Shown: one piece after another, positions 660 through 59,511 of the stretch
Numbering within the stretch: the stretch's first letter is position 1
Layout of the letters: the number at the start of each line of letters is the position of its first letter
Origin: Phycisphaerae bacterium
GTDB lineage: Bacteria; Planctomycetota; Phycisphaerae; FEN-1346; JAACEH01
DNA length: 64,000 nucleotides
NCBI GenBank assembly: GCA_012729015.1
Contig: JAAYDY010000105.1
Coordinates: 35,296-99,295 of the forward strand
Reading direction: 5' to 3'
Made by a program: the position numbers and the translations under genes
Notes under the pieces: model-generated
What the model was told of the DNA's origin: nothing
What the model saw: only the letters and a program-made list of their open reading frames with translations
Databases searched by the model: none

Positions 660-1433
660 TTACCGGTCGGCAAGCACGCCGACCAGGCGCAGCAGGCCGT
701 CGAGGATGGTCAGGGGATGCGGCGGGCATCCCGGCACAAACAGGTCCACCGGAAGCAGCGCCGCGATGCCATTGTGGACTTCGGGATGGTCGACGAAGGG
801 GCCGCCCGCGACGGCGCAACTGCCCACGGCAATCACGATCTTCGGCGCGGGAACGGCTTCGTAGGTCTTCAGCAGAGCCGTCCGCATGTTCTCGGTCACC
901 GGGCCAGTCACGAGGATGCCGTCGGCATGGCGCGGCGAAGCGACGAAATCGATGCCGAAGCGTTGGAGATCCCAGCCCACGGTGGTCAGAACGTTGCTGT
1001 CGGCCTCGCAGGCGTTGCAACCGCCGGCGCTGACCTGTCGCAGGCGAAGCGACCGTCCAAGGAAGCTGCGCAGACGATTACCCATGGCCGTGGCGAGCTG
1101 CAACTGCGCACCGGCCGCCAGCAGCAGATCCTCGCGCCGACTGACCGCCAGGCGATGATCGGTGGTGAACGCGATGGCCTGCTGCGGGCACGCCTCGGCA
1201 CAGCGTCCGCAGAACAGGCAGCGGCCCAGGTCCATGACCAGGCGGCCGTCGGGGCCGGCCGCGGCGGCGCCGGTCGGGCAGACGTCACGGCAGACGGAGC
1301 ACCCGGGCAGGCAGCGCGCGGGGTCGAGGGTCGGCCGTCCGCGCAGCCGATCGGAGACCTTCGGCGCAGGACCGTCGGGGTAGCGGAACGTGCGGTGTTT
1401 CTGGTGAAGTCGGGCCAGAAGAATGCTGATCAT
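660..1433 (-). CDS. Group-4 hydrogenase-like small subunit (NuoB-like) fused to an N-terminal 2x[4Fe-4S] ferredoxin (NuoI/HyfH-like)
   Basis: Two CxxCxxCxxxCP motifs at the N-terminus. The C-terminal NuoB/HycG-like domain carries GGCNACE, GSCAVAGG and PGCPP cysteines for a proximal Fe-S cluster. Confidence 0.8.
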   Translation of the reverse strand: MISILLARLHQKHRTFRYPDGPAPKVSDRLRGRPTLDPARCLPGCSVCRDVCPTGAAAAGPDGRLVMDLGRCLFCGRCAEACPQQAIAFTTDHRLAVSRREDLLLAAGAQLQLATAMGNRLRSFLGRSLRLRQVSAGGCNACEADSNVLTTVGWDLQRFGIDFVASPRHADGILVTGPVTENMRTALLKTYEAVPAPKIVIAVGSCAVAGGPFVDHPEVHNGIAALLPVDLFVPGCPPHPLTILDGLLRLVGVLADR

Positions 1434-1476
1434 CGTTCACCTTTCGCGGCGGGCCGGCGACCCGGCTCCGCCGGAC

Positions 1477-3003
1477 TCACAAATCGTGTCCGCAATACGA
1501 CAGGTTGAAGCTCTTGTTGCAGAGCGGGAAATCGGATATCTGCTGTCCGCGCAGTGCCAGCGCCAGGCCGAACCAGTTGTGCAGGGACGGATCGATGATC
1601 TTGTAGTGGGCCAGGCGGCCCGCGTCGTCGGTGGCGGCCACATGGCAGACTTCGCCGCGCCATCCCTCGACCAGCGTCACGACGGTGCGGCCAGGGGCCA
1701 GAGGCGGCATCGCGACGGCGATCGGCCCGTCGGGCAGGCCGCGGAGCTGGTCGCGGACAAACTCGACGGAACGCTGCACTTCGAGCCAGCGGACATACGC
1801 GCGGGCGAAGACGTCGCCGGAGTGCCACGTGGCGACGGGAACGTGCGCGAAGCTGAAGATGCCGGCGGGATGGTCGTGTCGCACGTCGAGGCCGATGCCG
1901 CAGGCCCTGGCGGCCGGGCCGACCAGGCCGATCTGGCGAACCGTCTCGGCGCTGAGCGTCCCGGTCTCTTCGAACCGGGCCATGACGGACGGCTTGTTCC
2001 ATAGCAGGTTGATCGCGGAGGCGGCGTCGGCAGCAACGGCATCCAGCCGGCGCAGCAAGTCGTCGGCACGGGCGGCGTCGATGTCGAATCGCACGCCGCC
2101 GGGGGTGAGCAGGCCGCGGCCGAAGCGGCTGCCGCAGAGTTGGGCCGTCATGTTGAGGCCGTCGCCGCGGATGCGTCCGCAGTAGCTGGCGGTGGGCAGG
2201 AAGCCGATGTCCCCGGCCAGGGCTCCCAGGTCGCCGATGTGACACGTCAGACGTTCCAGCTCGAGGGCGATGCCGCGGATGGCCTGGGCGCGGGCCGGGA
2301 CACCGACACCCGCAAGCGACTCCAGGGCCTGGCAGTATGCCGTGGCGTGACCGACGGTCGTGTCGCCGGCGGCGGTCTCGACGAGGTGAAGCGTGCGGGC
2401 ATCGGGGCCGCCGACAAGGCGTCGCTCGATTCCACGGTGCTGATAGCCGAGAGAGATTTCCAGATGCAGCACGGTTTCGCCGTGACACTGGAAGCGGAAG
2501 TGTCCGGGCTCGATCACTCCGGCGTGAACGGGGCCGACGGCGACCTCGTGGATTTCCTCGCCCTCGACGCGGAAGAAGTCGGTGACGCCGCACAGGGGGC
2601 CCTGCCCCGGATGTGCGAACACGCCGGCGCCTCGGGCGTAGGGCTCGTGGAAGCGGACCGGCTTGAGCCACGGGTGGCCCTTCGGGCGGATGTCCCACTG
2701 CTCGGCGATCTCGCGTTCGAACCAATGGGCCTGCGGACAGTCGGGCGTGAGAGCGGGGTAGTCTCGCTCCACACACGTTCGCAGGAGAGACAAGTGCGAC
2801 GTGCTGTCGGATGCCAGGACGGCGACGAGGCGGATTGCGCCGGGGGCGTCGGCGTCCGGTCGGCCGAACAGAGCGGCCAGTCGCATGCCTCCCGCCACGG
2901 CGGCTACAACCCGGTTTCGGAACACGTCGATGCCCACGTCCGGGACGGCGCCGAGGGGCGCCGCCTGCCCGTTGCGAAGGAGAAGGTCCGCGTTGACGGT
3001 CAT
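1477..3003 (-). CDS. NuoC-NuoD fused large subunit of a Group-4-hydrogenase-like complex (HycE/HyfG-like) lacking canonical NiFe cysteines
   Basis: N-terminal 30-kDa NuoC-like domain followed by a large-subunit fold (GPVHAG…YQHRGIE…, GWRGE). Region aligning to the HycE RxCGxCxxxH motif reads AAGDTTVGHATAY. C-terminus reads NLSYCGHDL instead of DPCxxCxxR/H. Confidence 0.8.
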   Translation of the reverse strand: MTVNADLLLRNGQAAPLGAVPDVGIDVFRNRVVAAVAGGMRLAALFGRPDADAPGAIRLVAVLASDSTSHLSLLRTCVERDYPALTPDCPQAHWFEREIAEQWDIRPKGHPWLKPVRFHEPYARGAGVFAHPGQGPLCGVTDFFRVEGEEIHEVAVGPVHAGVIEPGHFRFQCHGETVLHLEISLGYQHRGIERRLVGGPDARTLHLVETAAGDTTVGHATAYCQALESLAGVGVPARAQAIRGIALELERLTCHIGDLGALAGDIGFLPTASYCGRIRGDGLNMTAQLCGSRFGRGLLTPGGVRFDIDAARADDLLRRLDAVAADAASAINLLWNKPSVMARFEETGTLSAETVRQIGLVGPAARACGIGLDVRHDHPAGIFSFAHVPVATWHSGDVFARAYVRWLEVQRSVEFVRDQLRGLPDGPIAVAMPPLAPGRTVVTLVEGWRGEVCHVAATDDAGRLAHYKIIDPSLHNWFGLALALRGQQISDFPLCNKSFNLSYCGHDL

Positions 3004-4481
3004 TGCCGACCTCCCAGGGCCAGGGCTGCCAGTCGCAGCGCATCCTCAACGACAGGAGGCACGTAGACCCCCAGCACGAGCACCAGAACGGCCAGCGCCA
3101 GCGGCGGCAGGAACGTGCACGCTTGCTCGCGTGGGCGCGTCTCGGCCGCAAGCCGCTCCGGCGGAGCCCCGTAGGCCATCCGAAGCATGGCGGCGGCCAT
3201 GCCGATGAAGATGACGGCCAGCAGCGAGAGCACCGCGACGGCGACCCATGTGGCGTTCTGGTCGAAGGCCGCCTTGATGATCGCCAGTTCGCTGACGAAA
3301 GGGCCGAACGGCGGGCTGCCGCAGATGGCGAGAATGCCTGCAATCCACAGGGCGCCGGAGACGGGAAGAACGCGGATGGCGCCGCCCGTCCCGGCGACGC
3401 TCTTAGTGCGGTAGGCCGCCAGGAGGTTGCCGGCGACCAGGAAGAGCATGCCCTTGGTGAGGCTGTGGTTGAGGGCGTGGAGCATGGCGCCGAACGTAGC
3501 CGCGCCGCCGAGGCCGACGCCCAGAGCGAGGAGCCCCATGTGCTCGACGCTGGAGTAGGCGAGCATGCGTTTAAAATCGTCCTGTCGGATGATAAATACG
3601 GCGGCGACGGACATGGAAAGGAGGCCGAAGAGAATCAGCAGCGGCTGCGCGAATCCGGCGAGGCCTGCGGCGCTGCAGACCTGGAGAATGCGCAGGATGG
3701 CGAGGAAAGCGCAGTTGAGCAGGGCGCCGCTGAGCAGGGCCGAGACCATGGACGGAGCCTCGCTGTGGGCGTCGGGCAGCCAGGTGTGCAGGGGCGCCAG
3801 GCCCATCTTGGTGCCGTAGCCGACCAGGAAGAGCAGGAAGGTGGCCTTGAGCCAGGTGGGGTCGAGCTGGTCGGCCGCGGCGAGCAGATCGTTGAGGACC
3901 AAGGGGATGCTGCGGCCATCGGGCTCGGTGACGGCAATGGCGAGGAAGAAGTTGCCGAGCAGCGCGACGGCGATGCCCACGGAACAGACCAGGAGATACT
4001 TCCATGTGGCTTCGAGCGAGCGTTTTTGTCGGTGGAAGTAGATGAGCGGCGCGCTGGCCAGGGTGGTGGCCTCGACGGCGACCCAGAGGAGGCCAAAGTT
4101 GTGGCTGACGGTAACGAGGGTCATGGTGGCCAGGAACATGAGGAGGCAGGCGGTGAAGACGGCCTCGGGCTGGTTGGTGGCCAGGAATCCCTCGTCGGCC
4201 AGGCCGGTGGGGCGGCGGGCCTCGCGGGCGAGGTATCCGATTCCATAGAGCGCAGCGGTCAGGAACAGCAGGCTGAGGATGGCCAGGAAGACGGCCCCGA
4301 GCGGGTCCAGGAGGAGCCAGCCGCCGAGCTGCGGGCCGGCGGGGCGGACGAACGTGGCGGCAGTCAGACCGGCATGCCCCAGAGCAACCAGCACGAGGAG
4401 GGTTCGGCGCGCGGCGGCGGACCGGATGGCCAGAACGGCCGCAGCGGCGAAGGTCGGCAGGAGGATCAGGGCGACTATCAT
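3000..4481 (-). CDS. NuoM/NuoN-like antiporter-type membrane subunit (HyfF/HyfD-like)
   Basis: 493-aa polytopic hydrophobic protein of the complex I L/M/N (Mrp antiporter) family. Overlaps neighbouring genes in operon fashion. Confidence 0.75.
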   Translation of the reverse strand: MIVALILLPTFAAAAVLAIRSAAARRTLLVLVALGHAGLTAATFVRPAGPQLGGWLLLDPLGAVFLAILSLLFLTAALYGIGYLAREARRPTGLADEGFLATNQPEAVFTACLLMFLATMTLVTVSHNFGLLWVAVEATTLASAPLIYFHRQKRSLEATWKYLLVCSVGIAVALLGNFFLAIAVTEPDGRSIPLVLNDLLAAADQLDPTWLKATFLLFLVGYGTKMGLAPLHTWLPDAHSEAPSMVSALLSGALLNCAFLAILRILQVCSAAGLAGFAQPLLILFGLLSMSVAAVFIIRQDDFKRMLAYSSVEHMGLLALGVGLGGAATFGAMLHALNHSLTKGMLFLVAGNLLAAYRTKSVAGTGGAIRVLPVSGALWIAGILAICGSPPFGPFVSELAIIKAAFDQNATWVAVAVLSLLAVIFIGMAAAMLRMAYGAPPERLAAETRPREQACTFLPPLALAVLVLVLGVYVPPVVEDALRLAALALGGRQ

Positions 4482-4486
4482 GACGG

Positions 4487-5143
4487 TCAGTCCTTCAGCG
4501 CGGACAACTCGCCCGCGTCAATGTGATCGAATTCGCGGCTGATGTGGAAGATGATGATGCCCATGACGAAGACGGCCATGAAGGCGTCCAGGAGGATGCC
4601 AAGTTCGACCAGCAGTGCCTCCTTGAGGGCGAATCCGAGGCCGAAAGCCGTGATGCCGTTCTCGATGGACAGATATCCGACGACCTGCGTGAGGGCCTTG
4701 CGTCGGGCAACGATCATGAACAGGCCGACCATGAGCGTGAAGAGCGCCGCGGGGACGAGCAAGGGTGACGCCTGGACGCCGACGGGCAGCGGCAGGCGGC
4801 TGCCGATCCAGAGGCAGATGCCGATCAGGAGAACGCCGAGGAGCATGGAAGCGCCGAATCCGATGGCCGGCTCGACCTCTCGCCGCAAGTGCGTTTCGCG
4901 CAGGGCTCGCATGAGGAGCCACGGGAAGACCAACCCCTTGAGGACGATGTTGACGGCGGCCAGGACGATGCCGTGGGCGGCGAGGCCGCCGCTGGCGCCG
5001 ACGATGGCCAGGACGCCGAGCAGAACGCCCTGGAATGCCACGGTGTGAACGCAGGAGACGACGCGGCTGGAGCCCAGCAGCCGCAGATTCGTCATGGCGA
5101 TCAGCACGACGAGACAGTTGACCCAGAAGTCCAAGGTGCTCAC
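4487..5143 (-). CDS. HyfE-like small membrane subunit of hydrogenase-4-type complex
   Basis: Hydrophobic ~218-aa protein. The ORF extends to 5176, but a GTG at 5143 overlapping the upstream stop (GTGA) fits the operon junction better. Start uncertain. Confidence 0.55.
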   Translation of the reverse strand: MSTLDFWVNCLVVLIAMTNLRLLGSSRVVSCVHTVAFQGVLLGVLAIVGASGGLAAHGIVLAAVNIVLKGLVFPWLLMRALRETHLRREVEPAIGFGASMLLGVLLIGICLWIGSRLPLPVGVQASPLLVPAALFTLMVGLFMIVARRKALTQVVGYLSIENGITAFGLGFALKEALLVELGILLDAFMAVFVMGIIIFHISREFDHIDAGELSALKD

Positions 5144-6048
5144 CTCAGAACGAGAACCACCGCCAGAGCTGCACACGCCACGGCCGCCAGGAGCAACTGG
5201 GGCACGCGTACGAGACGAAGTCGGGCCATGGTGGACTCAACCACACCGATGCCCACCGCCACGGCCGCCATAGCGGCCAGAGCCAGGGCCACGTCGGCCC
5301 ACAGGACGCCGGTTCGCCATGGAACCAGGACCCCCACCAGCAGCGCGGCGAAGGCCCACTGCTTGAGCAGGGCGGCGTAGCCGGCAAACGCCAGGTCTGG
5401 GCCGCTGGTGTCGAGGATCATCACTTCATGAATCATCGTGAGTTCCAGGTGCGTGTTGGGGTCGTCCACGGGGATGCGGGCATTCTCGGCCAGCAGGACA
5501 ATGCCCACGGCGGCGGCCGCAAGCAGCAACACCGGGATACTGACCGCCGGGTTGGCAACGGCACCGGCCAGGAGTCCGCTGAGAGAGGGCGAACCGGCCA
5601 TGCGGGCCAGAGCGGCCAGGGCCAGCAGCAGGGCCGGCTCGGCCAGGGCGGAGAACGTGACTTCGCGGCTGGCGCCCATGCCTTCGAAACTGGACCCCGT
5701 GTCCAGGGCGGCCGCCACCATTAGAAACCGGACCAGGCCGAAGAGGTAAGCGAATACGATCAGGTCCCCGGCAAAGGACAATGGCGCGGCGGTCCCGCCG
5801 AACGGCAGCATCGCCAGGGCGGTCACGACGGCGGCCAGCGAGACGATGGGACCGGCCCTGAGAATCCAACTCGTCGTGCGACTGTAGACGGCTCCCTTGT
5901 GAAGCAACCGCCAGAGGTCGCGATACGGCTGAAGCACGGGCGGCCCGTTGCGTCCGGCGAAAGCGGACTTCGTCTTGTTGACAATGCCGGCCATGAGCGG
6001 CGCCAGGGCCAGTGCCAGCAGAGGATGTATCAGTTGCGTGGCATCCAT
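5140..6048 (-). CDS. NuoH/HycD/HyfC-like membrane subunit
   Basis: The C-terminal 302 aa of the 902-aa ORF (MDATQLIHPLLALALAPLMAG…) is NuoH-like. The upstream part of that ORF is an out-of-context Arg-rich artefact. ATG rev-comp at 6046-6048 lies directly after the stop of the upstream gene at 6051. Confidence 0.75.
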   Translation of the reverse strand: MDATQLIHPLLALALAPLMAGIVNKTKSAFAGRNGPPVLQPYRDLWRLLHKGAVYSRTTSWILRAGPIVSLAAVVTALAMLPFGGTAAPLSFAGDLIVFAYLFGLVRFLMVAAALDTGSSFEGMGASREVTFSALAEPALLLALAALARMAGSPSLSGLLAGAVANPAVSIPVLLLAAAAVGIVLLAENARIPVDDPNTHLELTMIHEVMILDTSGPDLAFAGYAALLKQWAFAALLVGVLVPWRTGVLWADVALALAAMAAVAVGIGVVESTMARLRLVRVPQLLLAAVACAALAVVLVLR

Positions 6049-6050
6049 CG

Positions 6051-8033
6051 TCAGCCGAGCTTCCAGACAAGCAACACCAGAAGGGTCAGAGCGATATAGA
6101 GAACGTACCACTGGACGCGGCCGTGCTGAATCCACCGGAGGCGGCTCAGCACTTCGCGCACACGTCGGAAGGCCGGGGCGATCAGTCGGTCTGTGAAGAG
6201 GTCGCCCACGTGTGTCTGAAGATGGGCCGCCGTCGGAAACAGTTCGACGATGGGGGCGGCGTCGCGCCTGGGGCGAAGCAGCCCGCGGAACAGGTCGACC
6301 AGCGGCTGGGCAAAGGATGACGAGGTATACTGCATGCGAGCAGTCGGGCGCTGGTATCCACAGTCCCAGGTGCCGCTCTGGGTGACGCTGCGCCCGGCGA
6401 GGAGCCGCCGCCGCAAGAGGACGAGAATGAGAGCGATGCCGATGAAGGCCGCCGCGGCAAGGACCACTCCTGTGAGCGGGGAGGAGGCGACGTTCAGGTC
6501 GATGGGCAGGCCGGCTGGTGCGGGACACAGCACGGCCAGTGGCGACGCCAAGCTGCGACCGATGAGCCAGGGCGACGCCACGCCGACGACGACGCATGCG
6601 ACCATCAACAGCGCCATGGTCGCCCACATGGTCCCCCCTGCCTCGTGGGCCTCGTCGGCCTCGGAAGTCCGCGGTTCCCCAAGGAAGATCGTGCCGCATG
6701 CCTTGGTGAAACAGGCCACCGCCAGCCCGCCGATGACGGCCAGTCCGGCGATGACGGCCGCTGTCGTGGCGCCGACCAGGAGATCGCCCGAGAGCATGCC
6801 GTTCAGCGCGGCGATGAAGACCAGGAACTCGCTCGTGAACCCGTTCAGCGGGGGCAGGCCGCACACGGCGACGGCTCCGAACAGAAACGCCATCGCGGTG
6901 CGCGGCATGCGTCGGGCCAGGCCGCCGAGTCGGTCGATGCGGGTCGTTCCGGCGGCGTGCAGAACGGCGCCGGCGCCCAGGAAGAGCAATCCCTTGAAGA
7001 GGGCGTGATTGAGAACATGCCACAGGGCGGCGGCATATCCCAGCGTCGCGACGGTCGGAGCGGCATAGGCGGTGCCGAGGACGCCCAGGCCGAGGCCCAT
7101 CGCAATGATGCCGATATTCTCGACGCTGCTGTAGGCCAGGAGGCGTTTGAGGTCGTGCTGTGCCAGGGCGAACAGGATGCCGAGGATGCCGCTGGAGAGG
7201 CCGATGGCAATGAGCAGCCAGCCCCACCAGGCGGGCGGCGGGCCGATGAGTGAGAGTATTCGCAGGAGTCCGTAGATGCCGGTCTTGATCATGACGCCCG
7301 ACATGACGGCCGAGACGTGGCTCGGCGCCGCAGGGTGCGCCTCGGGAAGCCAGACGTGCAGGGGCATGAAGCCCGCCTTGGTGCCGAACCCGGCGACGGC
7401 AAGCAGGAAACAGAGCGAGGCCAGGGCCGAGGTCATGCCACCGGCGTTCCAGTGGTCGAAATCGAGCGATCCGTGCTGGCGTGCCATAAGCACAAACAGG
7501 GCAATCAGGGCCGCCGTGCCGATGTGTGTGGCGACGAGGTAGGTCCACGCGGCGTGCCGCACGGACTCGCGGCGGTCGTCGTAGGCGACCAGGAAGAACG
7601 AGGCCAGCGACATCGTCTCCCAGGCCAGCAGGAAGAGGACGGCGTCGCGAGCGACGACCACGGCGATCATGCCGCAGGTCAGCAGGCTGTAGAAGAACCA
7701 GGAGACGCCGACGCGCGGGCCGGTGTCGTGGCCGAGATAGCGTGTTCCGTACACGGCGGCAACGGCGGTGAGGACAAGGATCGGCACGAGAAAGAGACCC
7801 GAGAGGGCGTCGAGGGCGACGTGAAACTCCCCAAGCGGCAGACCCCACGGACAGGCAATCGCGTCATGGGTGCCGCCCAGGACGGCGCGCAGCGCAGGAA
7901 CCAGGCCGACGGCGCTGCCTGCGATGGCGCCTACAGCCGCCAGCACGGAGGCGGCGCGGGGCCGACTTGCCACTGCCAGGGCCAGGAGACCCCCAAGAAA
8001 GATGATTGCGGTAGAGGCCAGGATCAGTTGCAT
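6051..8033 (-). CDS. NuoL/HyfB/HycC-like antiporter-type membrane subunit
   Basis: 660-aa polytopic protein of the complex I subunit L / MnhA family. ATG at 8033. Confidence 0.8.
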   Translation of the reverse strand: MQLILASTAIIFLGGLLALAVASRPRAASVLAAVGAIAGSAVGLVPALRAVLGGTHDAIACPWGLPLGEFHVALDALSGLFLVPILVLTAVAAVYGTRYLGHDTGPRVGVSWFFYSLLTCGMIAVVVARDAVLFLLAWETMSLASFFLVAYDDRRESVRHAAWTYLVATHIGTAALIALFVLMARQHGSLDFDHWNAGGMTSALASLCFLLAVAGFGTKAGFMPLHVWLPEAHPAAPSHVSAVMSGVMIKTGIYGLLRILSLIGPPPAWWGWLLIAIGLSSGILGILFALAQHDLKRLLAYSSVENIGIIAMGLGLGVLGTAYAAPTVATLGYAAALWHVLNHALFKGLLFLGAGAVLHAAGTTRIDRLGGLARRMPRTAMAFLFGAVAVCGLPPLNGFTSEFLVFIAALNGMLSGDLLVGATTAAVIAGLAVIGGLAVACFTKACGTIFLGEPRTSEADEAHEAGGTMWATMALLMVACVVVGVASPWLIGRSLASPLAVLCPAPAGLPIDLNVASSPLTGVVLAAAAFIGIALILVLLRRRLLAGRSVTQSGTWDCGYQRPTARMQYTSSSFAQPLVDLFRGLLRPRRDAAPIVELFPTAAHLQTHVGDLFTDRLIAPAFRRVREVLSRLRWIQHGRVQWYVLYIALTLLVLLVWKLG

Positions 8034-8036
8034 CGG

Positions 8037-8738
8037 TCAGTCGCCCTGCTGTCCGTGGCCGACCGATGCGAGGTTGCCCTCAACCTGCTCGACGCAGCGG
8101 AAGATCTCTTCGCGCGAGGCCTGGTTCTGCAGGACATCGCGAATCTTCGGCTCCCGCAGGACGAACGCCAGCCGCGACAGGAGATGCAGATGGGTTCTCA
8201 CGGTGGGACTGATCACGTTGAAGAGGATGCCGACGGGACGGCCGTCCAGTGCGGCAAAGTCGATGGGCTCTTCGAGGAACACCAGCGTGACCATGGGCCG
8301 GGCCACGTGCAGCACGATCGGATTGCGGACGTGCGGAATGGCGATGCCGTCGCCGATGCCGGTGGAGCCGAGCGATTCGCGGGCCAGCATGACATTGAGC
8401 AGAAACTGACGATCCACGTCCTCGGGCAGCGGCATGAGGCCCACAACCGACCGCAGAACGGAGGGCTTGTCCTTGCCTTCCACACGGTAGAAGACGCCGC
8501 CGGCCCTCAGCGCCTCGGTCAGCGTCGGTTGCGGCGCCTCTGCACTGACCGGTTCGGCGAACATGTCGGGCGAGACGTTCAGACGCTGGGCTGTTGCCCA
8601 TTCAAGCAACTCGCTGCGGTTGAAGCGATATTGCTCACCTACCTTGTAGGCAGGCAGTCGGCCCTGGCTGATCCAACGATAAATCGTTTTTTCAGAGACG
8701 CTTAGAATTCCAGCAGCGTCGCGAACAGTTAATCTCAT
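8037..8738 (-). CDS. Transcriptional regulator: excisionase/MerR-type HTH fused to a PTS EIIA(Ntr)-like domain
   Basis: N-terminus MRLTVRDAAGILSVSEKTIYRWI is an HTH. The C-terminal domain has an EIIA type-2 fold with GIAIPH (phosphorylatable His). Ends 3 nt before the hydrogenase-like operon. ORF may instead start at GTG 8750. Confidence 0.6.
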   Translation of the reverse strand: MRLTVRDAAGILSVSEKTIYRWISQGRLPAYKVGEQYRFNRSELLEWATAQRLNVSPDMFAEPVSAEAPQPTLTEALRAGGVFYRVEGKDKPSVLRSVVGLMPLPEDVDRQFLLNVMLARESLGSTGIGDGIAIPHVRNPIVLHVARPMVTLVFLEEPIDFAALDGRPVGILFNVISPTVRTHLHLLSRLAFVLREPKIRDVLQNQASREEIFRCVEQVEGNLASVGHGQQGD

Positions 8739-8986
8739 CGTTCCCACCACATTCTCGTCTGTCTCACCCGGTGGACATTACGGGACAGTCTACATCAGAA
8801 CTCCGCGTTGTCAAGCTGTTTCCCGCTGGGGTTCCCGCGGTGGGCGAGTCGATCCTCAGGATAGAGGCTTGATTCCCTGTGACGGACATCGGTACGATGC
8901 ATGGTGTCGTACTGTCATTTCGATGACCCTGCGTGGAGCCGCAGCGATCACATCTGTAGCCGTCCGGACAAGGGGGGGAGCCTATC

Positions 8987-9703
8987 ATGCGTACCATAGC
9001 AATGCATTGTCTGTTTGTCGTCGTGACTCTGTTGATGATCTGCGGGGGCCCTGCCCTGGCTGCACCGCGCGATCGGGGCGATGATGACGACCTCAACCGC
9101 AACCGGCTGAAGATGGCGGGGCTGCTGGACGAGGCGCGCACCCTGGGACAGGAAGGCGGGCAGTTGACCCGCGAGGCCGTCGAAGGTCGCGTGCCCGATC
9201 GTACCAAGCCTGCCGCCGAGGGCGAGGGCGCACGCGAGGAACGCTGGATCGAGTTGACCGACGAAGAGCGGCTGTCGCGATTCGCCGACGCAAGGAAGAA
9301 GTTCGACGCCTCGTTCCGCAAGGTGACCGAGGTGGAGGAGTTCCTCAAAACGCATCCGGACATCATTCGCGAGAACATTCCCGCCGAGGCCAAGAAGAAA
9401 CTCCAGCAGGCGTGTTCGCGGACGCTGGTGGCCGAGGCCCGATTCCGCATGTCGAAGGACCTCGGCACCGCCAGCCAGTGGCGCAAACTGATCGACCAGG
9501 CGCTGAAACTCGACGCCGACAGCGTCGAGGCCAGGCGGGCGCAGGAAGAACTCCAGAAGAAGATCGACGAGCAGAGGGACAAGCAGAAGAGTGATGACCC
9601 GAAGGACAACCCGAAGAAGGACGACGCCGGCAGCGATGGGAACAAGAAGGACGGGGACCCGAAGGACGACAACCAGAAGAAGTCGGAAGACGGCAAGCAG
9701 TAG
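8987..9703 (+). CDS. Secreted hypothetical protein with signal peptide and K/D/E-rich low-complexity C-terminus
   Basis: ATG at 8987 preceded by GGGGGGAG. Hydrophobic signal sequence then charged coiled-coil-like region. Preferred over the antisense ORF 8764..9720. Confidence 0.45.
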   Translation: MRTIAMHCLFVVVTLLMICGGPALAAPRDRGDDDDLNRNRLKMAGLLDEARTLGQEGGQLTREAVEGRVPDRTKPAAEGEGAREERWIELTDEERLSRFADARKKFDASFRKVTEVEEFLKTHPDIIRENIPAEAKKKLQQACSRTLVAEARFRMSKDLGTASQWRKLIDQALKLDADSVEARRAQEELQKKIDEQRDKQKSDDPKDNPKKDDAGSDGNKKDGDPKDDNQKKSEDGKQ

Positions 9704-10135
9704 CCAGTGGCGCGGCGCATAAAAATCCCGGCAGGCTCGCGCTATGACCTGCCGGGCGTTTGGCGCCGACCATCGGCGCCCAACATTCGTCCGACACTCC
9801 TTCATGCAGAGCGTCGGCTGTTTTGTCTTCGTACCTGAATGATATGCGCCCGCCGTACACGGTCAACCCCTCTGAAAAAACAGGGTTTCGCGACGCGCAC
9901 TTCAGGTTAATAACGGGGCCATTCTGTAAGCCACAGGCTACAGAGTGTTCCAGCCCAATCTGTGGACACCTTGTGAAACCCTTCCGGTGCGACAATGGAC
10001 CGCGCCTATCGCTAGTCTTTCTGCGGTCGTAACGCAGCATTCCGCACGGCCTCGTCCTCGCTCTATCTTGTGGCGCTCCATCCACATGACTATCATAGGC
10101 GGCCTGTCGGTCTCTTTTCGGAGGCAAGGTGGTCC

Positions 10136-10480
10136 ATGGAAGTCGCTCACATCTTCGAAGCCGTGATGCTTTTCTGTTTCGGGTTCAGTTGGCCGGTGGC
10201 CATCCGCAAGACGCTCCGCGTGCGCATGGTCCACGGCAAGAGCGTGGGATTCCTGTACCTGGTGGTCGTCGGCTACCTGGCCGGCATCGTGATGAAGTTC
10301 CTGCGTGCCGATGGCGGCCTGCCCGACTGGGTGACGCTGCTTTACGCCACCAACGCCGTGATGGTCTCGATCGAGATTGTTCTGTATTACCGATTCCGTC
10401 GCGCGCCGACGGAGCCGGGGCTGGACCTGGTCCCCGAGTCGCCAGGGACCGACGTCGAACCGCCCGAGCACTGTCGCTGA
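10136..10480 (+). CDS. Small hypothetical membrane protein (~3 TM)
   Basis: Hydrophobic segments only. Start ambiguous (10070 or internal ATG at 10136). Confidence 0.25.
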   Translation: MEVAHIFEAVMLFCFGFSWPVAIRKTLRVRMVHGKSVGFLYLVVVGYLAGIVMKFLRADGGLPDWVTLLYATNAVMVSIEIVLYYRFRRAPTEPGLDLVPESPGTDVEPPEHCR

Positions 10481-10597
10481 TTGTCGCAGGTCACGGGGCG
10501 GCCTGCTTGGCCCTATTCTCCACGGCGTCGTGGTGCTATAATCCGCCTATTCGAATCGCTCCGGGACTCCAGGCGAGGGCTGCCGCGGCAGACACAC

Positions 10598-11482
10598 GTG
10601 GCCAGGTACGCGACGTTCCATAATCCGATCTCCGGTTCCGGTCGGGCCGCCGAGTTGGTCGGCCTGATCACGGCCGAGCTTCGAGCCCACGGTCACGAGG
10701 TGGCGGCGTTCGCCCCTCGCAGCCGCGAAGAAGCCGTCGAGCAGGCCCGGTCGCTGGACGAATCGCACGACGCCCTGCTGAGCGTCGGCGGCGACGGCAC
10801 GCACAACACGATTGCCAGCGGGCTGCTGGGGCGCCCCGTGCCGATGTTGCCTGTGCCGGCCGGCACCGAGAATGTCCTGTGCCGGGCTATCGACATACCG
10901 CCCGACCCGGTCCTGATACGCCAGATGCTGGAAACCGGCCGGGCGATCCCGGTGGACGTGGCAATGGCCAACGGCCACCCGTTCCTGATCATGAGCGGCG
11001 TGGGGTTCGACGCCGCCGTCACGCGGGAGGTGCACCGCCACCGCCGCGGCCCCATCCGCCGACGCGACTACTACCTGCCGTCGGTGCGGCTCTGGTGGGG
11101 CTACCGGTGGCCGCATCTGGCCATCGAGGTGGACGGCCGCACCGTCGCCGAGAACGCTGCCTTGGCCATCGTGGGCAACATGCGGCTGTACGCCGACAAG
11201 TTGCACATCTGCGCCGACGCGACGCCGACCGACGGTCTGCTGGACATCTGCGTGTTCACCAAACCCGGCCGGTGGCACCTCCTGAAGTACTTCCTGCTGA
11301 CCAAGGCCGGACGCCACACGCGATGCAGCGACGTGGTCTACCGCCAGGGCAAGCGTTTGGTCGTGCGACCGGTTGAGGGCGACGTGCCGTACCAGGTGGA
11401 CGGCGACGCTGTCGCGGCAGCGCCGGTCGAGTACACGATTCAGCCGGGCGGCATTCGATTGTTCACGCGTGTCGCCTTGTAG
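10598..11482 (+). CDS. Diacylglycerol-kinase-catalytic-domain family lipid kinase (YegS/BmrU-like)
   Basis: NPxSG…GGDGT motif and overall DAGK_cat fold. Start uncertain (TTG 10481 or GTG 10598). Confidence 0.6.
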   Translation: MARYATFHNPISGSGRAAELVGLITAELRAHGHEVAAFAPRSREEAVEQARSLDESHDALLSVGGDGTHNTIASGLLGRPVPMLPVPAGTENVLCRAIDIPPDPVLIRQMLETGRAIPVDVAMANGHPFLIMSGVGFDAAVTREVHRHRRGPIRRRDYYLPSVRLWWGYRWPHLAIEVDGRTVAENAALAIVGNMRLYADKLHICADATPTDGLLDICVFTKPGRWHLLKYFLLTKAGRHTRCSDVVYRQGKRLVVRPVEGDVPYQVDGDAVAAAPVEYTIQPGGIRLFTRVAL

Positions 11483-11519
11483 GACGAATTGTCACCCCTC
11501 AGCCAAGGAGTCGCAGACC

Positions 11520-12344
11520 ATGAATGTGTCGTCCGTAAAGGTGGGCAAGCTCAGCCTCGGCAACGGGCCGTTGTTCCTGATCGCCGGTCCTTGCGTGATC
11601 GAGTCGCCGGACCTCCTGCGTCGCGTGGCCGACGTGCTGGTGCCGATGGCCGCGCGTCTGGGCGTGCCCTTCGTGTTCAAGGCCTCGTTCGACAAGGCCA
11701 ACCGCTCGAGCGCCGGCAGCTACCGCGGCGTCGCCATGGACGAGGGGCTGGCGGACCTGGCCGCGATTCGCGACGCCTATGGGTGCCCGATTCTGTCGGA
11801 CATTCACGAGTCGGGCCAGGCCCCCGTGGCCGCCCAGGTGCTCGATTGTCTTCAGATTCCCGCTTTCCTGTGCCGCCAGACCGATCTGTTGCTGGCTGCC
11901 GCCGCCACGGCCAAGCCCGTCAACGTCAAGAAAGGCCAGTTCCTGGCCCCGTGGGACATGAAGAACGTGGTGGAGAAGATCGCCGGCGCCTCGCCGTGCG
12001 GCCAGGCGCGGCTCATGCTGACCGAGCGCGGCACCAGCTTCGGCTACAACCGCCTCGTGAGCGACATGACGGCCATTCCCACGATGCGCCAGTACGGCTA
12101 CCCCGTCATCTTCGACGCCACCCACAGCGTCCAGCAGCCCGGCGGCCTGGGCAACGCCAGCGGCGGCAACAGGGCCATGGTCCCGACGCTGGCCCGCGCA
12201 GCCGTGGCGGCCGGCTGCGACGGCCTCTTCCTGGAGGTCCACCCCGATCCGGACAAGGCCCTCAGCGACGGGCCCAACATGCTCGCGCTGCCCGAGGTGG
12301 AGCCCTTGATGAAGCAACTGCTGGCGATTCGGGCGGCCCTGTGA
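11520..12344 (+). CDS. kdsA: 3-deoxy-8-phosphooctulonate (KDO-8-P) synthase
   Basis: Full-length similarity to KdsA (…LFLIAGPCVIES…FKASFDKANRSS…, DATHSVQ). ATG at 11520 with AAGGAG 8 nt upstream. Confidence 0.85.
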   Translation: MNVSSVKVGKLSLGNGPLFLIAGPCVIESPDLLRRVADVLVPMAARLGVPFVFKASFDKANRSSAGSYRGVAMDEGLADLAAIRDAYGCPILSDIHESGQAPVAAQVLDCLQIPAFLCRQTDLLLAAAATAKPVNVKKGQFLAPWDMKNVVEKIAGASPCGQARLMLTERGTSFGYNRLVSDMTAIPTMRQYGYPVIFDATHSVQQPGGLGNASGGNRAMVPTLARAAVAAGCDGLFLEVHPDPDKALSDGPNMLALPEVEPLMKQLLAIRAAL

Positions 12345-12428
12345 CACACGTGCCAGAAGGCCATCGCGGGCTCTGTGTGTCTGTCATCGCGGCCGGAGAA
12401 GCCCGAGGAACCGAAGGAGGCTCGATCG

Positions 12429-37047: not shown

Positions 37048-37062
37048 AGTATGACTCCCGAC

Positions 37063-39030: not shown

Positions 39031-39499
39031 CGGCAGAGGCCTTTCCTCGATACGAATCCAGAATCTTCCTGACCGAATCCGGCGTCAGTTTCGCATGAAA
39101 CTCGCCGTTGACGCACATCACCGGAGCCAGGCCGCAAGCCCCGATACAAGCCACGACCTCCAGGCTGAACAGGCCGTCGCGGGTCGTTTCGCCCGGCTTG
39201 AGCTTCAGCTCGCGCTTCACGGCTTCCAGAATGCCGGCCGACCCCTTCACGTGGCAGGCCGTGCCGCGGCAGAGCTGAATGTGGAAGCGTCCCTGCGGCT
39301 GAAACCGGAACTGGTTGTAAAAGGTGGCCACGCCATAGACCTTGCTGGCCGGCAACCCCAGATGCTCGCCTACGCGGGCGACCGATTCTCGCGACAGGTA
39401 GCCCTCGACCTGCTGCACCTTCTGCAGGATCGGAATGAGGGCATCGCGACCGGCGCCGGCATAGTCCTTGAGAATTCCGCCTACGTCGACCTTTGTCAC
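39014..39499 (-). CDS. hydC: NuoE-like 2Fe-2S subunit (HydC/HndA-like)
   Basis: Cx4C…Cx3C thioredoxin-like ferredoxin (LCRGTACHVKG…ACIGACGLAP). GTG 39499 with AGGAAGG upstream. Upstream part of the ORF is artefactual. Confidence 0.75.
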   Translation of the reverse strand: MTKVDVGGILKDYAGAGRDALIPILQKVQQVEGYLSRESVARVGEHLGLPASKVYGVATFYNQFRFQPQGRFHIQLCRGTACHVKGSAGILEAVKRELKLKPGETTRDGLFSLEVVACIGACGLAPVMCVNGEFHAKLTPDSVRKILDSYRGKASADVHSK

Positions 39500-39510
39500 A
39501 GCAGTCCTTC

Positions 39511-40152
39511 CTAACTGACCGACACCTTGTGGGCTCGCTTCTGGCGAGCGAAGAACGCCACCTTCTCCAGAGAGGTGGTCACATCGATATCTTCGACATA
39601 CACATGCTCCGGCACGCGAATCGCCACGGGAGCGAAGTTGAGCAGTCCACGGACGCCGGCCCGCACAAGCACATCGGCCACGTCCTGGGCGGCCTCGGCC
39701 GGAACGGCCACCATGGCCACCCGAATGCCTCTGTCGTCGACGACCGAGGCCATGTCTTCGATCGGATAGCACCGACATCCATGCACCACGCGATTGGTCT
39801 TGGAGCCGTCCTGATCGAACGCAGCCACCATCTTGAGCTTGGGCCGGCGGCCCTCGAAGTAGGCCATCATCGCGCGGCCGATGTTGCCGACACCCACCAG
39901 GGCAACCGCCTCCGGCTCGTCAGCATCCAGGAAGAGCCCGATATGCTCAATGAGCTCGGGCACGTCATATCCCCTGGCCGGACTCCCGGAACAGCCGACC
40001 GTCATCATGTCGCGACGCACCTGGGCAGCGGTAACGCCGGCGGCAGACGCAAGTTCATGTGAGAACACGTGTCTTGTGCCACGGTTGCGCATGGCAACCA
40101 GGAGCCTTCGATAGAGGCTCAGCCGTCCTACGGTTCGCTCGGGAGTCATCAT
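39511..40152 (-). CDS. rex: Redox-sensing transcriptional repressor Rex
   Basis: Winged-helix N-terminus plus Rossmann NADH-binding domain (LVGVGNIGRA). 213 aa. Confidence 0.85.
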   Translation of the reverse strand: MMTPERTVGRLSLYRRLLVAMRNRGTRHVFSHELASAAGVTAAQVRRDMMTVGCSGSPARGYDVPELIEHIGLFLDADEPEAVALVGVGNIGRAMMAYFEGRRPKLKMVAAFDQDGSKTNRVVHGCRCYPIEDMASVVDDRGIRVAMVAVPAEAAQDVADVLVRAGVRGLLNFAPVAIRVPEHVYVEDIDVTTSLEKVAFFARQKRAHKVSVS

Positions 40153-42916: not shown

Positions 42917-42940
42917 AGTCTGCTAAGGGGCGAACTGGCG

Positions 42941-43654: not shown

Positions 43655-43667
43655 GGGCTATTGTCAC

Positions 43668-59499: not shown

Positions 59500-59511
59500 G
59501 CAAACGCCTCG

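Follow-up and report, generated by a model that had tools for sequence, protein, structure and literature searches.

The 64,000-nucleotide stretch of Phycisphaerae DNA analysed here (the window) carries, at 660-8738 on the minus strand, an operon of six ehr genes and one regulator gene that, judged by sequence, is a new member of the already named and widespread Ehr family. It is a new member of a known family and not a new family, because this family includes the Geobacter prototype (59% identity between the EhrL proteins of the window and of the cultured Geobacter pickeringii). Again judged by sequence, the complex is descended from group 4 [NiFe] hydrogenases of the Hyf/formate hydrogenlyase (FHL) type and has lost their NiFe site, a loss that would leave it unable to make or use H2. 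We give about an even chance to a fuller reading, in which the operon encodes a ferredoxin-linked, H2-independent ion pump, regulated by a PtsN-like protein and with an inorganic-carbon output. The relevant features are as follows.

REG, 8037..8738, minus strand: first gene of the operon, HTH_17 domain (excisionase/MerR-like) fused to a PtsN/EIIA(Ntr)-like domain.
Sigma-70-like promoter candidate, 8787..8814, minus strand: TTGACA-16-TAGACT, upstream of REG, a consensus match only (consensus scan, 10/12 matches).
ehrA, 6051..8033, minus strand: 660 aa, Proton_antipo_M, NuoL/HyfB/HycC-like, antiporter-type (NCBIfam 'hydrogenase 4 subunit B', 640 bits).
ehrB, 5140..6048, minus strand: 302 aa, NADHdh, NuoH/HycD-like membrane anchor with E-channel.
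ehrC, 4487..5134, minus strand: 215 aa, HyfE-like (NF008556, 6.9e-26), C-terminal half NuoK-like.
ehrD, 3000..4481, minus strand: 493 aa, Proton_antipo_M, NuoM/HyfF-like, antiporter-type.
ehrL, 1477..3003, minus strand: 508 aa, Complex1_30kDa and Complex1_49kDa, fused NuoC and NuoD/HycE-like, without NiFe ligands.
EhrL residues 156-172, VGPVHAGVIEPGHFRFQ, 2488..2538, minus strand: beta1-beta2 coupling loop, family-invariant.
EhrL residues 209-219, ETAAGDTTVGH, 2347..2379, minus strand: equivalent of the N-terminal RxCGxCxxxH in degenerate form, with A212 and T215 at the Cys positions.
EhrL residues 490-508, SDFPLCNKSFNLSYCGHDL, 1480..1536, minus strand: equivalent of the C-terminal DPCxxCxxH/R in degenerate form, with S502 and G505 at the Cys positions.
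ehrS, 660..1433, minus strand: 257 aa, Fer4 dicluster and Oxidored_q6, fused HycF/NuoI-like 2x[4Fe-4S] and HycG/NuoB-like domains.
EhrS ferredoxin-type cysteines, within 1188-1313, minus strand: C41/45/48/52 and C72/75/78/82.
EhrS proximal-cluster cysteines (NuoB-type), within 726-1019, minus strand: C139, C142, C206, C236.
HydABC-type [FeFe] enzyme, 35326-39700: HydA with TSCSPGW instead of TSCCP.
HoxFUYH, 41096-45677: RLCGICPVSH and DPCLSC motifs present.

Along the minus strand, REG is followed by ehrA-B-C-D-L-S, with gaps of -4 to 43 nt among the six ehr genes; REG ends 3 nt before ehrA and has an alternative GTG start at 8750, and ehrC starts at the TTG called in the public contig (L001), within an ORF that reaches 5176. 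The preliminary description had proposed a six-subunit Ehr module. All six genes were found, domain and profile searches returned the subunit types it had listed (NuoL-, NuoH-, HyfE- and NuoM-like, fused NuoC-NuoD, fused ferredoxin-NuoB), and every hallmark of Ehr that can be checked is present (Cys-less large subunit, Fe-S small subunit, membrane subunits, gene order), but the seventh gene, at 8037-8738 (HTH_17 and PTS_EIIA_2), had been missed. The label 'complex-I-like' holds at the superfamily level, but all six subunits are nearest to FHL or MBH chains, not to complex I. It had also stated that the function is unknown, and papers up to July 2025 still say so.

Ehr relatives occur in at least 596 species genomes, and the order ehrA-B-C-D-L-S, published for Geobacter (GSU0739-0745; PMC7894505) and Methylacidiphilum (PMC6688271), is kept in 50 of 52 complete related loci, that of G. 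pickeringii included. Like the window operon, the Geobacter and Methylacidiphilum systems have the six subunit types in identical order and a large subunit without NiFe cysteines, and the Ehr signature motifs HAGxIEPGHFRF, ExxAGDT...H and SDFPLCNKSFNLSYCGxDL are identical to those of the window. Every Ehr subunit has been detected in the proteome of Geobacter sulfurreducens (PMC7894505); the sequence comparison was made with G. pickeringii. Whereas the window has a single EhrA, Geobacter-type loci have an additional NuoL-like gene that is often divergent, and G. pickeringii lacks REG, which in the window lies directly upstream of ehrA. Furthermore, EhrS of Geobacteraceae has lost the ligands of one ferredoxin-type cluster (that of G. 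pickeringii has no Fer4 Pfam match), whereas the window EhrS keeps both clusters.

The loss of the NiFe site is read from EhrL. In the alignment with HycE (7z0s_E, phmmer, E=1e-47), RVCGICGFAH faces ETAAGDTTVGH and LDPCYSC faces FNLSYCG, which places A212, T215, S502 and G505 at the four ligand positions; BLASTP against the closest Cys-bearing relative, P0459 (ERICGVCAASH / SFELCYSCTDL), gives the same four non-Cys positions. The earlier claim that no canonical ligand position holds Cys is thus upheld, with its motifs quoted exactly, and no alignment restores the four cysteines; its list of nearby cysteines quoted the ATAYCQ and SYC motifs exactly but omitted the conserved C495 (FPLCNKSF), also near the C-terminal motif. 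The protein ends at this motif without any C-terminal extension, contains no CxxC anywhere and, unlike the Cys-bearing relative, gives no PF00374 match. All of 82 orthologues share E209, G213, D214 and H219. It is extremely improbable that Ehr is still a hydrogenase whose metal centre sits on non-canonical ligands such as C224, C495, C504, D214 and H219. Indeed, although C495 and C504 are family-specific and lie in the C-terminal segment beside the lost ligand positions, none of the three cysteines is strictly conserved: C495 is found in 96% (N495 in Geomonas), C504 in 93% (A504 in Gemmatimonadota) and C224 in 71% of sequences, and nearly all of ~110 representative clusters lack Cys at all four canonical positions. 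Moreover, the Ehr of N. moscoviensis is not induced by H2 (PMC12342949), and M. tuberculosis, devoid of NiFe maturation genes, has hyc-family genes homologous to EHR complexes (PMC6728331).

Only four of ~110 near-full-length representatives (P0459, P0485, P0490 and P0502; 38-39% identity) bear the cysteines, and these are the nearest hydrogenases in sequence. They share with Ehr the loop motif HAGIIEPGHFR and the C-terminal context FPLxNKSF(E/N)L.., but differ by ERxCGxC...H, LCYSCxD(L/R) and a PF00374 match. In an unrooted NJ tree they group as a single small clade next to Cys-less sequences, and they are probably the 'group 4f' clade, close to which Ehr has been placed (PMC10284858).

Around the Cys-less pocket, much of the hydrogenase machinery is retained. 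In the beta1-beta2 loop, H160 corresponds to HycE H188 and E165 to E193, the proton-donor Glu (alignment and PMC9474812); the proton-relay residues E165, H255, R366, E408 and R449 are kept, as are three coupling loops in the complex (beta1-beta2, ND1-like and ND3-like). The AF2 model of EhrL (pTM 0.78) has HycE 7z0s_E as top fold match (TM 0.76), with low confidence at the pocket itself (residues 156-167 and 488-508); therefore, no argument is drawn from pocket geometry. E. coli FHL/hydrogenase-4 (group 4a [NiFe], PDB 7Z0S; Hyf) provides the top solved matches of EhrA, EhrB and EhrL (HycC, HycD and HycE), and HycG and HycF come close behind the top match of EhrS. FHL and the window Ehr have in common the beta1-beta2 loop Glu, the canopy Arg, the H284/E437/R395 proton path, the HycD E-channel and the ND3-like loop Cys of HycC. 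By contrast with FHL, the window Ehr lacks the NiFe ligands, the PF00374 match and any FdhF or HycB partner, has N500 in EhrL in place of the HycE canopy Asp D529, fuses HycF and HycG, has additional HyfE- and HyfF-like subunits, and carries in EhrA a TM7 Lys absent from HycC.

EhrS, described earlier as having a four-Cys proximal site and a 2x[4Fe-4S] ferredoxin domain, indeed possesses all 12 cysteines. Its first ferredoxin motif has the spacing CX3CX2CX3CP, its proximal-cluster motif is the CxxC of hydrogenases and not the tandem CC of complex I, and its top PDB matches are MbhJ (4e-33), HycG (4e-29) and HycF (1e-15). Across phyla, 57 of 73 EhrS sequences (78%) have all 12 cysteines. The other ~22% have lost ligands of at least one cluster; among them, the proximal cluster is gone in five lineages and both ferredoxin-type clusters in three. 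As the pocket motifs of EhrL are invariant even so, electron delivery to the pocket cannot be universally essential.

In the membrane arm, the Lys/Glu/His chains of both antiporter-like subunits and the E-channel are kept in the window operon. The top PDB match of EhrA is HycC (7z0s_C, 5.8e-75); 57 orthologues share the EhrA residues E139, K219, K250, H339, H343, K347 and E402 without exception, and the C-terminus of EhrA contains the ND3-like loop (TWDCGY). EhrB best matches HycD (1.2e-37), whose Y102, R108, E130, E138 and E189 are all conserved as Y101, R107, E129, E137 and E188. EhrC conserves E158, E177 and D183. EhrD best matches MbhH (4e-31); relative to NuoM, K234 corresponds to K225, E407 to a Glu and K265 to N256, and its E137, K225, H335 and K343 are invariant among orthologues.

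REG matches Pfam HTH_17 (1.5e-18), PTS_EIIA_2 (8.6e-24) and TIGR01419 PtsN (2.7e-22), and 42 orthologues all keep its phospho-acceptor motif GxGxAxPH (His136) and a second His. Of 52 loci, 30 have REG immediately before ehrA and eight more have it at another place in the locus, and three of three REG homologues picked blind stand in front of an Ehr operon; to judge from these positions, it is the dedicated first gene of the Ehr operon. The control of K+ and ion homeostasis by PtsN-type regulators of proteobacteria is one reason to consider Ehr as an Mrp-like secondary cation/proton antiporter or a device for pH/ion homeostasis, its peripheral arm serving as a structural or redox-sensing cap, a reading that also draws on the mosaic erosion of the Fe-S ligands beside a fully conserved membrane arm and interface loops, on the lack of conserved partner genes, and on the speculative listing of Ehr under pH homeostasis in the acidophile Methylacidiphilum (PMC6688271). 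It is nevertheless unlikely: the retention of the 12 cysteines by most orthologues in many phyla argues for selection on the clusters, the Na+-linked Mrp small subunits (MrpB/C/E/F/G, MbhA-G) are absent, and the proton-relay residues of hydrogenases are invariant around the pocket.

Among 280 genes flanking ~75 Ehr loci, no redox-partner gene recurs, the sole recurrent neighbours being REG and an extra antiporter-like gene; therefore, a diffusible donor and acceptor are required. Formate dehydrogenase, HycB-like and NuoE/F genes likewise fail to recur around these loci and none adjoins the window operon, which makes very unlikely a formate-linked complex (FDH-Ehr), akin to FHL with another electron sink, in which Ehr would be the membrane module. 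In favour of such a complex, it has been proposed for Margulisbacteria and Saganbacteria (PMC6349859), the Ehr subunits of Geobacter reach higher levels with formate than with H2 (PMC7894505), and FHL is the closest solved relative.

In the ion-pump reading, a soluble low-potential donor, most probably reduced ferredoxin, would dock on the HycF-like domain of EhrS; the HydABC-type hydrogenase in the window is counted for this ferredoxin link. Electrons would travel over three clusters and reach the Cys-less pocket, located where EhrL, EhrS and EhrB meet; there, an acceptor other than H+ would be reduced and protonated. The resulting charge and conformational change would reach EhrA and EhrD by way of the loops and the E-channel, and these two subunits would move protons (or another ion) across the membrane; the reaction may also run backwards. 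Expression would probably be set by the PtsN-like regulator according to C/N status, via a phosphorelay. One physiological output, suggested by gene context in relatives, may be the energising or balancing of inorganic-carbon uptake.

Menaquinone is the leading, if unproven, candidate acceptor where the host has it. Every Ehr subunit has superfamily-level homology to the complex I/NDH-1 core (NuoBCDHLMN); NuoC and NuoD are fused as in E. coli, the folds are alike (TM ~0.7), the Asp of Nqo4 D139 is kept as D265 of EhrL, and EhrD has the NuoM-like TM12 Glu. Against a quinone, the ligands of complex I are not conserved in EhrL (Nqo4 Y87 and H38 correspond to G213 and I164), and EhrB is HycD-like and not ND1-like, no ND1 chain appearing below 1e-5 in its PDB search. 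NuoA, J and N and the NADH module are also absent. In Riflemargulisbacteria, which have an Ehr complex possibly of another clade than that of the window, no quinone pathway was found (PMC6349859). A group-4-derived complex that has lost hydrogenase chemistry and kept its Fe-S wire and ion translocation is known in Pyrococcus, the membrane-bound sulfane reductase MBS/Mbx (PDB 6U8Y). Its chains are detectable Ehr homologues, with much weaker similarity than FHL or MBH, and its 13 subunits include an Mrp-type Na+ module absent from the window Ehr; sulfur reduction seems implausible for the many aerobic Ehr hosts.

The carbon output is drawn from relatives. One locus (L017) reads REG-EhrL-EhrS-DabA (PF10070, 2e-241)-DabB-DabB'-SulP::P-II on a single strand; two (L098/L102) read DabB1-DabB2-ehrABCDLS-SulP::P-II, the DabB2 stop overlapping the ehrA start; and five (L052/L091/L093/L094 and L113) read (REG-)ehrABCDLS-SulP::P-II. 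SulP-STAS immediately precedes REG-ehr in L060 and L084 and is close by in L074, and in the P0087 locus SbtA (PF05982) stands between two Ehr modules, with accB/accC downstream. Conversely, 44 of 80 SulP::P-II loci have DabA/DabB in the position held by Ehr in six others, and REG-like genes adjoin DAB/SulP::P-II even without Ehr (L114, L156). DAB, with its NuoL-like DabB, works as a PMF-driven vectorial carbonic anhydrase (PMC13144422); like cyanobacterial NDH-1MS, it is a functional analogue of Ehr through a NuoL-type proton-conducting subunit, but is not homologous as a whole. Ehr operons join or replace DAB genes beside SulP::P-II in several lineages. Ehr might thus belong to an energy-coupled system of inorganic-carbon uptake, or stand in for one as a non-orthologous replacement, either with its antiporter-like arm working with DabA/DabB, as NDH-1MS does with CupA, or with the Cys-less pocket itself hydrating CO2 vectorially; in the latter case, the former hydrogenase gas channel and proton relay would be reused and the proton would leave through the E-channel. 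Such a proton-producing, non-redox reaction would explain an invariant proton relay beside lineage-dispensable Fe-S ligands. This remains rather unlikely, as inorganic-carbon neighbours occur at only ~7% of genome-sampled Ehr loci (5/80, plus the SbtA case), DabA and SulP have no match in the 64-kb window, and the window operon lacks a DabA-like beta-carbonic-anhydrase domain, only its antiporter-like subunits being homologous to DAB. Moreover, EhrL has no obvious strictly conserved set of Zn ligands (H506 is kept in 57%, and C504, C495 and C224 vary as above), and most members, several DIC-linked ones included, retain the Fe-S cysteines. The adjacency, seen as gene neighbourhood in relatives only, could mean shared C/N regulation or proton/ion balance and not shared catalysis; it suggests a role of Ehr in carbon uptake as a testable lead.

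The two bona fide hydrogenases announced earlier beside the operon both exist in the window, as HoxFUYH and the HydABC-type enzyme, but the HydA motif of the latter departs from the canonical one.

The Ehr operon consists of seven tightly packed genes running on the minus strand from position 8738 to position 660 of the window, with intergenic gaps of -4 to 43 nt. The gene calls match in public contigs encoding identical proteins, and a 'hydrogenase' from a Phycisphaerae MAG is 100% identical to the window large subunit. The six subunits that the preliminary description had recognized at 660-8738 are all confirmed by Pfam and NCBIfam, but a regulator gene (REG) lying inside this interval had been overlooked. 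The operon is organized as follows, the genes being assigned with Pfam and NCBIfam:

8814-8787, minus strand: candidate sigma-70-like promoter match, 5' of REG
8037-8738, minus strand: REG, 233 aa; HTH_17 + PTS_EIIA_2, PtsN-like
6051-8033, minus strand: ehrA, 660 aa; Proton_antipo_M; 'hydrogenase 4 subunit B', 640 bits
5140-6048, minus strand: ehrB, 302 aa; NADHdh
4487-5134, minus strand: ehrC, 215 aa; HyfE-like
3000-4481, minus strand: ehrD, 493 aa; Proton_antipo_M; HyfF-like
1477-3003, minus strand: ehrL, 508 aa; Complex1_30kDa + Complex1_49kDa
660-1433, minus strand: ehrS, 257 aa; 4Fe-4S dicluster + Oxidored_q6

A terminator scan 3' of ehrS gave nothing convincing, the matches being at chance level, and the downstream HU gene has a promoter match of its own. 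Divergent from the Ehr promoter region, a predicted secreted protein rich in Lys, Asp and Glu is encoded at 8987-9703 (plus strand), in a stretch with a G+C content of 0.61 versus ~0.67.

The first match to the large subunit, EhrL, among all PDB chains (phmmer) is HycE of the E. coli formate hydrogenlyase (FHL; 7z0s_E, 1e-47), and EhrL also matches the Complex1_49kDa profile (3e-34). In the phmmer register, RVCGICGFAH of HycE faces ETAAGDTTVGH of EhrL and LDPCYSC faces FNLSYCG, so that the four NiFe-ligand positions are occupied by A212, T215, S502 and G505. The same register is obtained by BLASTP against P0459 (38% identity; sequence from a 2.2 kb contig), the closest Cys-bearing relative, which displays ERICGVCAASH ... 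SFELCYSCTDL. EhrL has 12 cysteines and no CxxC motif, carries neither the L1 (RxCGxCxxxH) nor the L2 (DPCxxCxx(H/R)) motif of group 4 [NiFe]-hydrogenases, and does not match the Ni-dependent hydrogenase profile PF00374, which is matched by HoxH of the window and by P0459. Since the HycE and P0459 alignments agree, neither recovers any of the four NiFe cysteines and PF00374 is unmatched, the claim that the large subunit has lost these ligands holds. The AF2 model of EhrL, built from a 24-sequence alignment, has a pTM of 0.78, with pLDDT <50 at the beta1-beta2 loop and over the last 20 residues; a fold search with it retrieved HycE (7z0s_E, TM 0.76) as best match, then E. coli NuoCD, and also MbhL. 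From its sequence, the window complex is an ordinary member of the known Ehr family and would not be a hydrogenase. A cryptic hydrogenase, HycE-like in sequence and fold and devoid of all four NiFe ligands, is extremely improbable.

The other subunits lead to the same solved complexes, FHL and the Pyrococcus membrane-bound hydrogenase (Mbh chains). The best PDB matches are HycC for EhrA (6e-75), HycD for EhrB (1e-37), MbhH for EhrD (4e-31), and MbhJ (4e-33), HycG (4e-29) and HycF (1e-15) for EhrS; the only solved chains matched by EhrB are HycD, MbhM and MbsM, with no ND1 chain below 1e-5. Every subunit thus appears closest to a chain of one of these two hydrogenases, not to complex I. Residues from the FHL structure paper were mapped onto the EhrL/HycE alignment (chain index offset by 12). 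EhrL keeps H160, H255, R366 and E408 (H188, H284, R395 and E437 of HycE), as well as the proton-donor Glu (E165 = HycE E193) and the canopy Arg (R449 = HycE R478). The canopy Asp D529 of HycE is replaced by Asn (N500), and E or N also occupies this position in the Cys-bearing sister sequences. All HycD E-channel residues are kept in EhrB. In EhrA the ND3-like loop is preserved, including its Cys (TWDCGY), and E139, K219, K250, H339, H343, K347 and E402 are invariant; EhrD keeps E137, K225, H335, K343 and the TM12 Glu and has Asn in place of the TM8 Lys, and EhrC retains both membrane Glu residues. This conservation of loop, relay, E-channel and antiporter residues argues for strong selection on the machinery of coupling and ion translocation, the metal site alone having been lost.

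Coppi reportedly named the Ehr complexes in 2005, and in 2013 Marreiros et al. are said to have seen in them a 'missing link' that connects complex I to membrane-bound hydrogenases. Geobacter GSU0739-0745 are the genes for which the name was introduced (PMC7894505), and the ehrABCDLS naming is used for Methylacidiphilum (PMC6688271); the window gene order is that of published Ehr cluster descriptions. A Geobacter-MAG orthologue used as query retrieves cultured Geobacter (AOG1, grbiciae, OR-1 and pickeringii). On the G. pickeringii chromosome (CP009788.1), an extra divergent NuoL-like gene is followed by ehrA-B-C-D-L-S; the EhrL encoded there is 59% identical to that of the window over 499 aa and has the C-terminus ...SDFPLCNKSFNLSYCGFDL. 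Since both EhrL and the locus of G. pickeringii match, membership of the window operon in Ehr can be considered established at the sequence level, the prototype compared being G. pickeringii and not GSU0743 of strain PCA. The subunit set, the loss of cysteines, the gene order and the Geobacter orthology all agree with the assignment made in the preliminary description: the observation is confirmed and the Ehr interpretation supported.

The family is large. A word-indexed search gave 8000 scored homologues, the best 120 of which show 64-100% identity and belong to Planctomycetota, Methylomirabilota/NC10, Deltaproteobacteria and Binatia. When one genome of each GTDB species was scanned, at least 596 loci were confirmed, in taxa including Verrucomicrobiota, Geobacteraceae, Geothrix, Spirochaetota, Gemmatimonadota, Omnitrophota and Elusimicrobia, and HMMER, run exhaustively on 1.84 billion cluster representatives, found 1004 clusters at E<1e-30. 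Among 82 orthologues down to 52% identity, the segments VGPVHAGxIEPGHFRFQ, LGYQHRG, ExxAGD(T/S)xxxH and SDFPLCNKSFNLSY(C/A)Gx DL of EhrL are invariant or nearly so, and the order L-H-E-M-LSU-SSU is found in 50 of 52 complete loci (tblastn maps). All four NiFe cysteines are present in only four of ~110 near-full-length representatives (P0459, P0485, P0490 and P0502), which form one small clade beside the Cys-less sequences in an unrooted, star-like NJ tree of 90 representatives; this position fits the published statement that Ehr is close to group 4f (PMC10284858). In Nitrospira moscoviensis, Ehr is not induced by H2 (PMC12342949). Papers published between 2019 and July 2025 call the function of Ehr undetermined, as the preliminary description did, and a literature search found no paper assigning one. 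Ehr being present in at least ~600 species-level genomes (Planctomycetota, Verrucomicrobiota, Geobacter, Nitrospira, NC10, methanotrophic Verrucomicrobia), one more member, in a Phycisphaerae MAG with Hox [NiFe] and HydABC-type [FeFe] hydrogenases, is unsurprising alone and the finding in itself is modest. Its value lies in patterns found among the relatives, i.e. a PtsN-like HTH regulator, no conserved redox partner, loss of Fe-S ligands and fusion with genes for inorganic-carbon (DIC) uptake, which make the question of Ehr function experimentally approachable.

Complex I differs from Ehr in many respects. Its core comprises at least eleven subunits, with NuoA, J, K, N and a NuoH of the ND1 type among them, whereas Ehr has only six. 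The quinone-binding Tyr and His of NuoD are not found in EhrL (ungapped phmmer aligns Nqo4 Y87 with G213 and H38 with I164), whereas the Asp is kept (Nqo4 D139, EhrL D265), and the tandem-Cys N2 motif of NuoB differs from GGCNACE of EhrS. A complex-I-type quinone site was therefore rejected as a homology argument, as the ligands are not conserved, EhrB is HycD-like and EhrS has CxxC; convergent quinone reduction may still occur. Margulisbacteria with a reported Ehr complex, maybe not of the window's clade, have no recognisable quinone synthesis (PMC6349859). Unlike MBS/Mbx, which have 13 subunits with a Mrp-type Na+ module, the window operon encodes no homologue of MbhA-G/MrpB-G.

The regulator combines an excisionase/MerR-type HTH with an EIIA(Ntr)-type domain (PF00359, 8.6e-24), whose phospho-acceptor His (GIAIPH136) is present in 98% of 42 orthologues. 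Among 52 loci with sufficient flanking sequence, 30 have REG directly upstream of the Ehr genes and on the same strand, and 8 others have it at another place in the locus. Its family exceeds 7500 homologues, with a conservation about equal to that of EhrL, and three out of three homologues picked blind to context precede an Ehr operon. This type of gene, which neither the preliminary description nor the Ehr papers found in our literature search mention, thus appears to be a conserved and dedicated first gene of Ehr operons. The association of an HTH with an EIIA(Ntr)-type domain carrying the conserved His suggests that the operon would be under PTS(Ntr)-type control, i.e. would respond to carbon/nitrogen status, and we infer that the PtsN-like factor regulates the Ehr module.

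In agreement with the preliminary description, EhrS of the window keeps a four-Cys proximal site and a 2x[4Fe-4S] domain, its 12 cysteines being intact: four are of the NuoB/HycG cluster type, in the hydrogenase-type CxxC arrangement (GGCNACE), and eight correspond to two ferredoxin-type clusters (1188-1313, minus strand). The usual spacing of ferredoxin motifs is CX2CX2CX3CP; the first motif of EhrS (residues 41-52) has CX3CX2CX3CP, family-wide. All 12 cysteines are kept in 57 of 73 EhrS sequences and the 16 others deviate. Losses affecting the ferredoxin domain (L037, L040, L057, L068, L079, L075, L076, L083, L073, L084) concern the ligands of one cluster in Geobacteraceae and an Elusimicrobia MAG, the other cluster in two Gemmatimonadota MAGs, both clusters in a third, and the whole domain in two Omnitrophota MAGs. 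In five Planctomycetota/Verrucomicrobiota lineages (L022, L024, L052, L067, L070), the four ligands of the proximal cluster are replaced (e.g. DSDN, SEEW) although the rest of this domain is well conserved; L025 EhrS ends short in this domain, probably an extraction artefact. As the EhrL pocket motifs are unchanged in all Fe-S-deviant members, about one lineage in five seems able to do without electron delivery to the pocket, so that non-redox readings stay viable. One of the main rival readings, in which Ehr would be a secondary antiporter and its arm vestigial or a sensor, is quite unlikely.

Neighbours were surveyed by Pfam around ~75 loci, with 140 upstream genes taken from up to 4.5 kb and 140 downstream genes from up to 2.2 kb. 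Upstream, PTS_EIIA_2 (36), HTH_17 (34) and an extra Proton_antipo_M (8) stand out, all others occurring at most 3 times; downstream, no domain exceeds 4. No FDH, CODH, NuoEFG, carbonic anhydrase or hyp/maturation genes recur around these ~75 loci. A formate-linked complex, with subunits resembling those of FHL and no recurrent FDH nearby, is very unlikely. As no partner gene is conserved, the donor would be a common soluble carrier, and ferredoxin is the natural candidate because of the HycF-like domain of EhrS and the HydABC-type hydrogenase of the window. We thus favour, with middling confidence, a ferredoxin-fed, H2-independent, ion-translocating module, in which reduced ferredoxin would be the electron source and electrons would reach a putative acceptor other than H+.

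The two other hydrogenases announced by the preliminary description are indeed encoded by the window. A complete Hox-type NAD-linked [NiFe] hydrogenase (HoxE/F fusion, HoxU, HoxY and HoxH; 41096-45677, plus strand) carries canonical RLCGICPVSH and DPCLSC motifs in HoxH. A HydABC-type [FeFe] cluster includes a HydA (35326-37062, minus strand) with MPCTAKKFE and MTCPGGCIAGGGQP motifs and with TSCSPGW instead of the canonical TSCCP. The Cys to which proton transfer is usually assigned is therefore a Ser in the window HydA. A third NuoF-like/NuoE-like pair (Complex1_51K + 2Fe-2S_thioredx) lies at 57152-59511 (minus strand), and no catalytic hydrogenase/dehydrogenase subunit was identified beside it.

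A minority of Ehr loci are embedded in DIC-uptake clusters, which raises the idea that Ehr may take part, directly or as an auxiliary, in the energy-coupled uptake of CO2/bicarbonate. In L017 (Planctomycetaceae; 3782-12371), a REG-like gene, EhrL, EhrS and DabA (PF10070, 2e-241) are co-directional with a pair of DabB-like genes (PF00361) and with a gene for a SulP transporter that carries a fused P-II domain (SulP::P-II). SulP::P-II directly follows ehrS in L052 (Isosphaeraceae; 9991-11952), and SulP-STAS genes directly precede REG in L060 (2336-4243) and L084 (2567-4366) or lie near it in L074, the three proteins being 43-59% identical to one another. In the metagenomic P0087 locus, SbtA lies between two Ehr modules, with accB/accC downstream. 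In a reverse test, metagenome contigs were scanned with a SulP::P-II alignment. DabA/DabB adjoin SulP::P-II in 44 of the 80 loci obtained, which therefore assigns this transporter to DAB (DabA/DabB) clusters, and the Ehr operon takes the DabA/DabB position in six. Among these six are L113 (REG-ehrABCDLS-SulP::P-II) and L098 (1-11968)/L102; in the latter pair the order is DabB1-DabB2-ehrABCDLS-SulP::P-II, and the reading frames of DabB2 and ehrA overlap. In L114 and L156, a REG-like gene is found next to DAB/SulP::P-II in the absence of Ehr.

DAB is now described as a vectorial carbonic anhydrase that is driven by the PMF and contains a NuoL-like subunit (PMC13144422). It differs from Ehr in combining DabA (PF10070), a beta-CA-like subunit, with a PF00361 subunit; DabA adjoins Ehr genes in relatives only (L017), the 64-kb window matching neither DabA nor SulP. 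However, a DIC context is found in only ~7% of Ehr loci, some of them closely related to one another, and DIC-linked Ehrs comprise both intact-wire and broken-wire types. A systematic absence of Fe-S ligands from these Ehrs was rejected, L017, L098, L113, L060 and L074 being intact; an Isosphaeraceae-type lineage among them lacks the proximal cluster. No paper found in our literature search links Ehr to DabA, SbtA or SulP. A role in carbon uptake, the other main rival to the ferredoxin-fed module, is unlikely, as is the bolder proposal that Ehr could be the missing engine of non-cyanobacterial CO2/bicarbonate acquisition, as a partner of DAB or its non-orthologous replacement. Vectorial CO2 hydration would then be driven or balanced by the gas channel, proton relay and antiporter arm taken over from the hydrogenase, with the PtsN-like transcription factor setting C/N-status control. 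The Fe-S wire would not lead to a reducible substrate but would supply energy or act as a sensor. If this link were true, genome surveys of hydrogen metabolism should drop Ehr loci from hydrogenase counts, and the carbon-acquisition toolkits of heterotrophs and chemolithoautotrophs would gain a new component.

Variants of the module itself were also encountered. In some genomes a second Ehr-like module is present, which is more divergent, with a large subunit 37-40% identical (L046:13404-19917, L064:2535-9048 and the P0087 locus), and the EPGH loop motif has decayed in some divergent representatives (P0394, P0397, P0400, P0402, P0416, P0421, P0425, P0468, P0504). An additional NuoL-like gene (EhrA-2 type) is present in L015, L028, L031, L038, L049, L057, L088, L089 and others, especially in Geobacteraceae; it is either in tandem or divergent together with REG, and a toxin-antitoxin pair sometimes lies between this gene and the operon.
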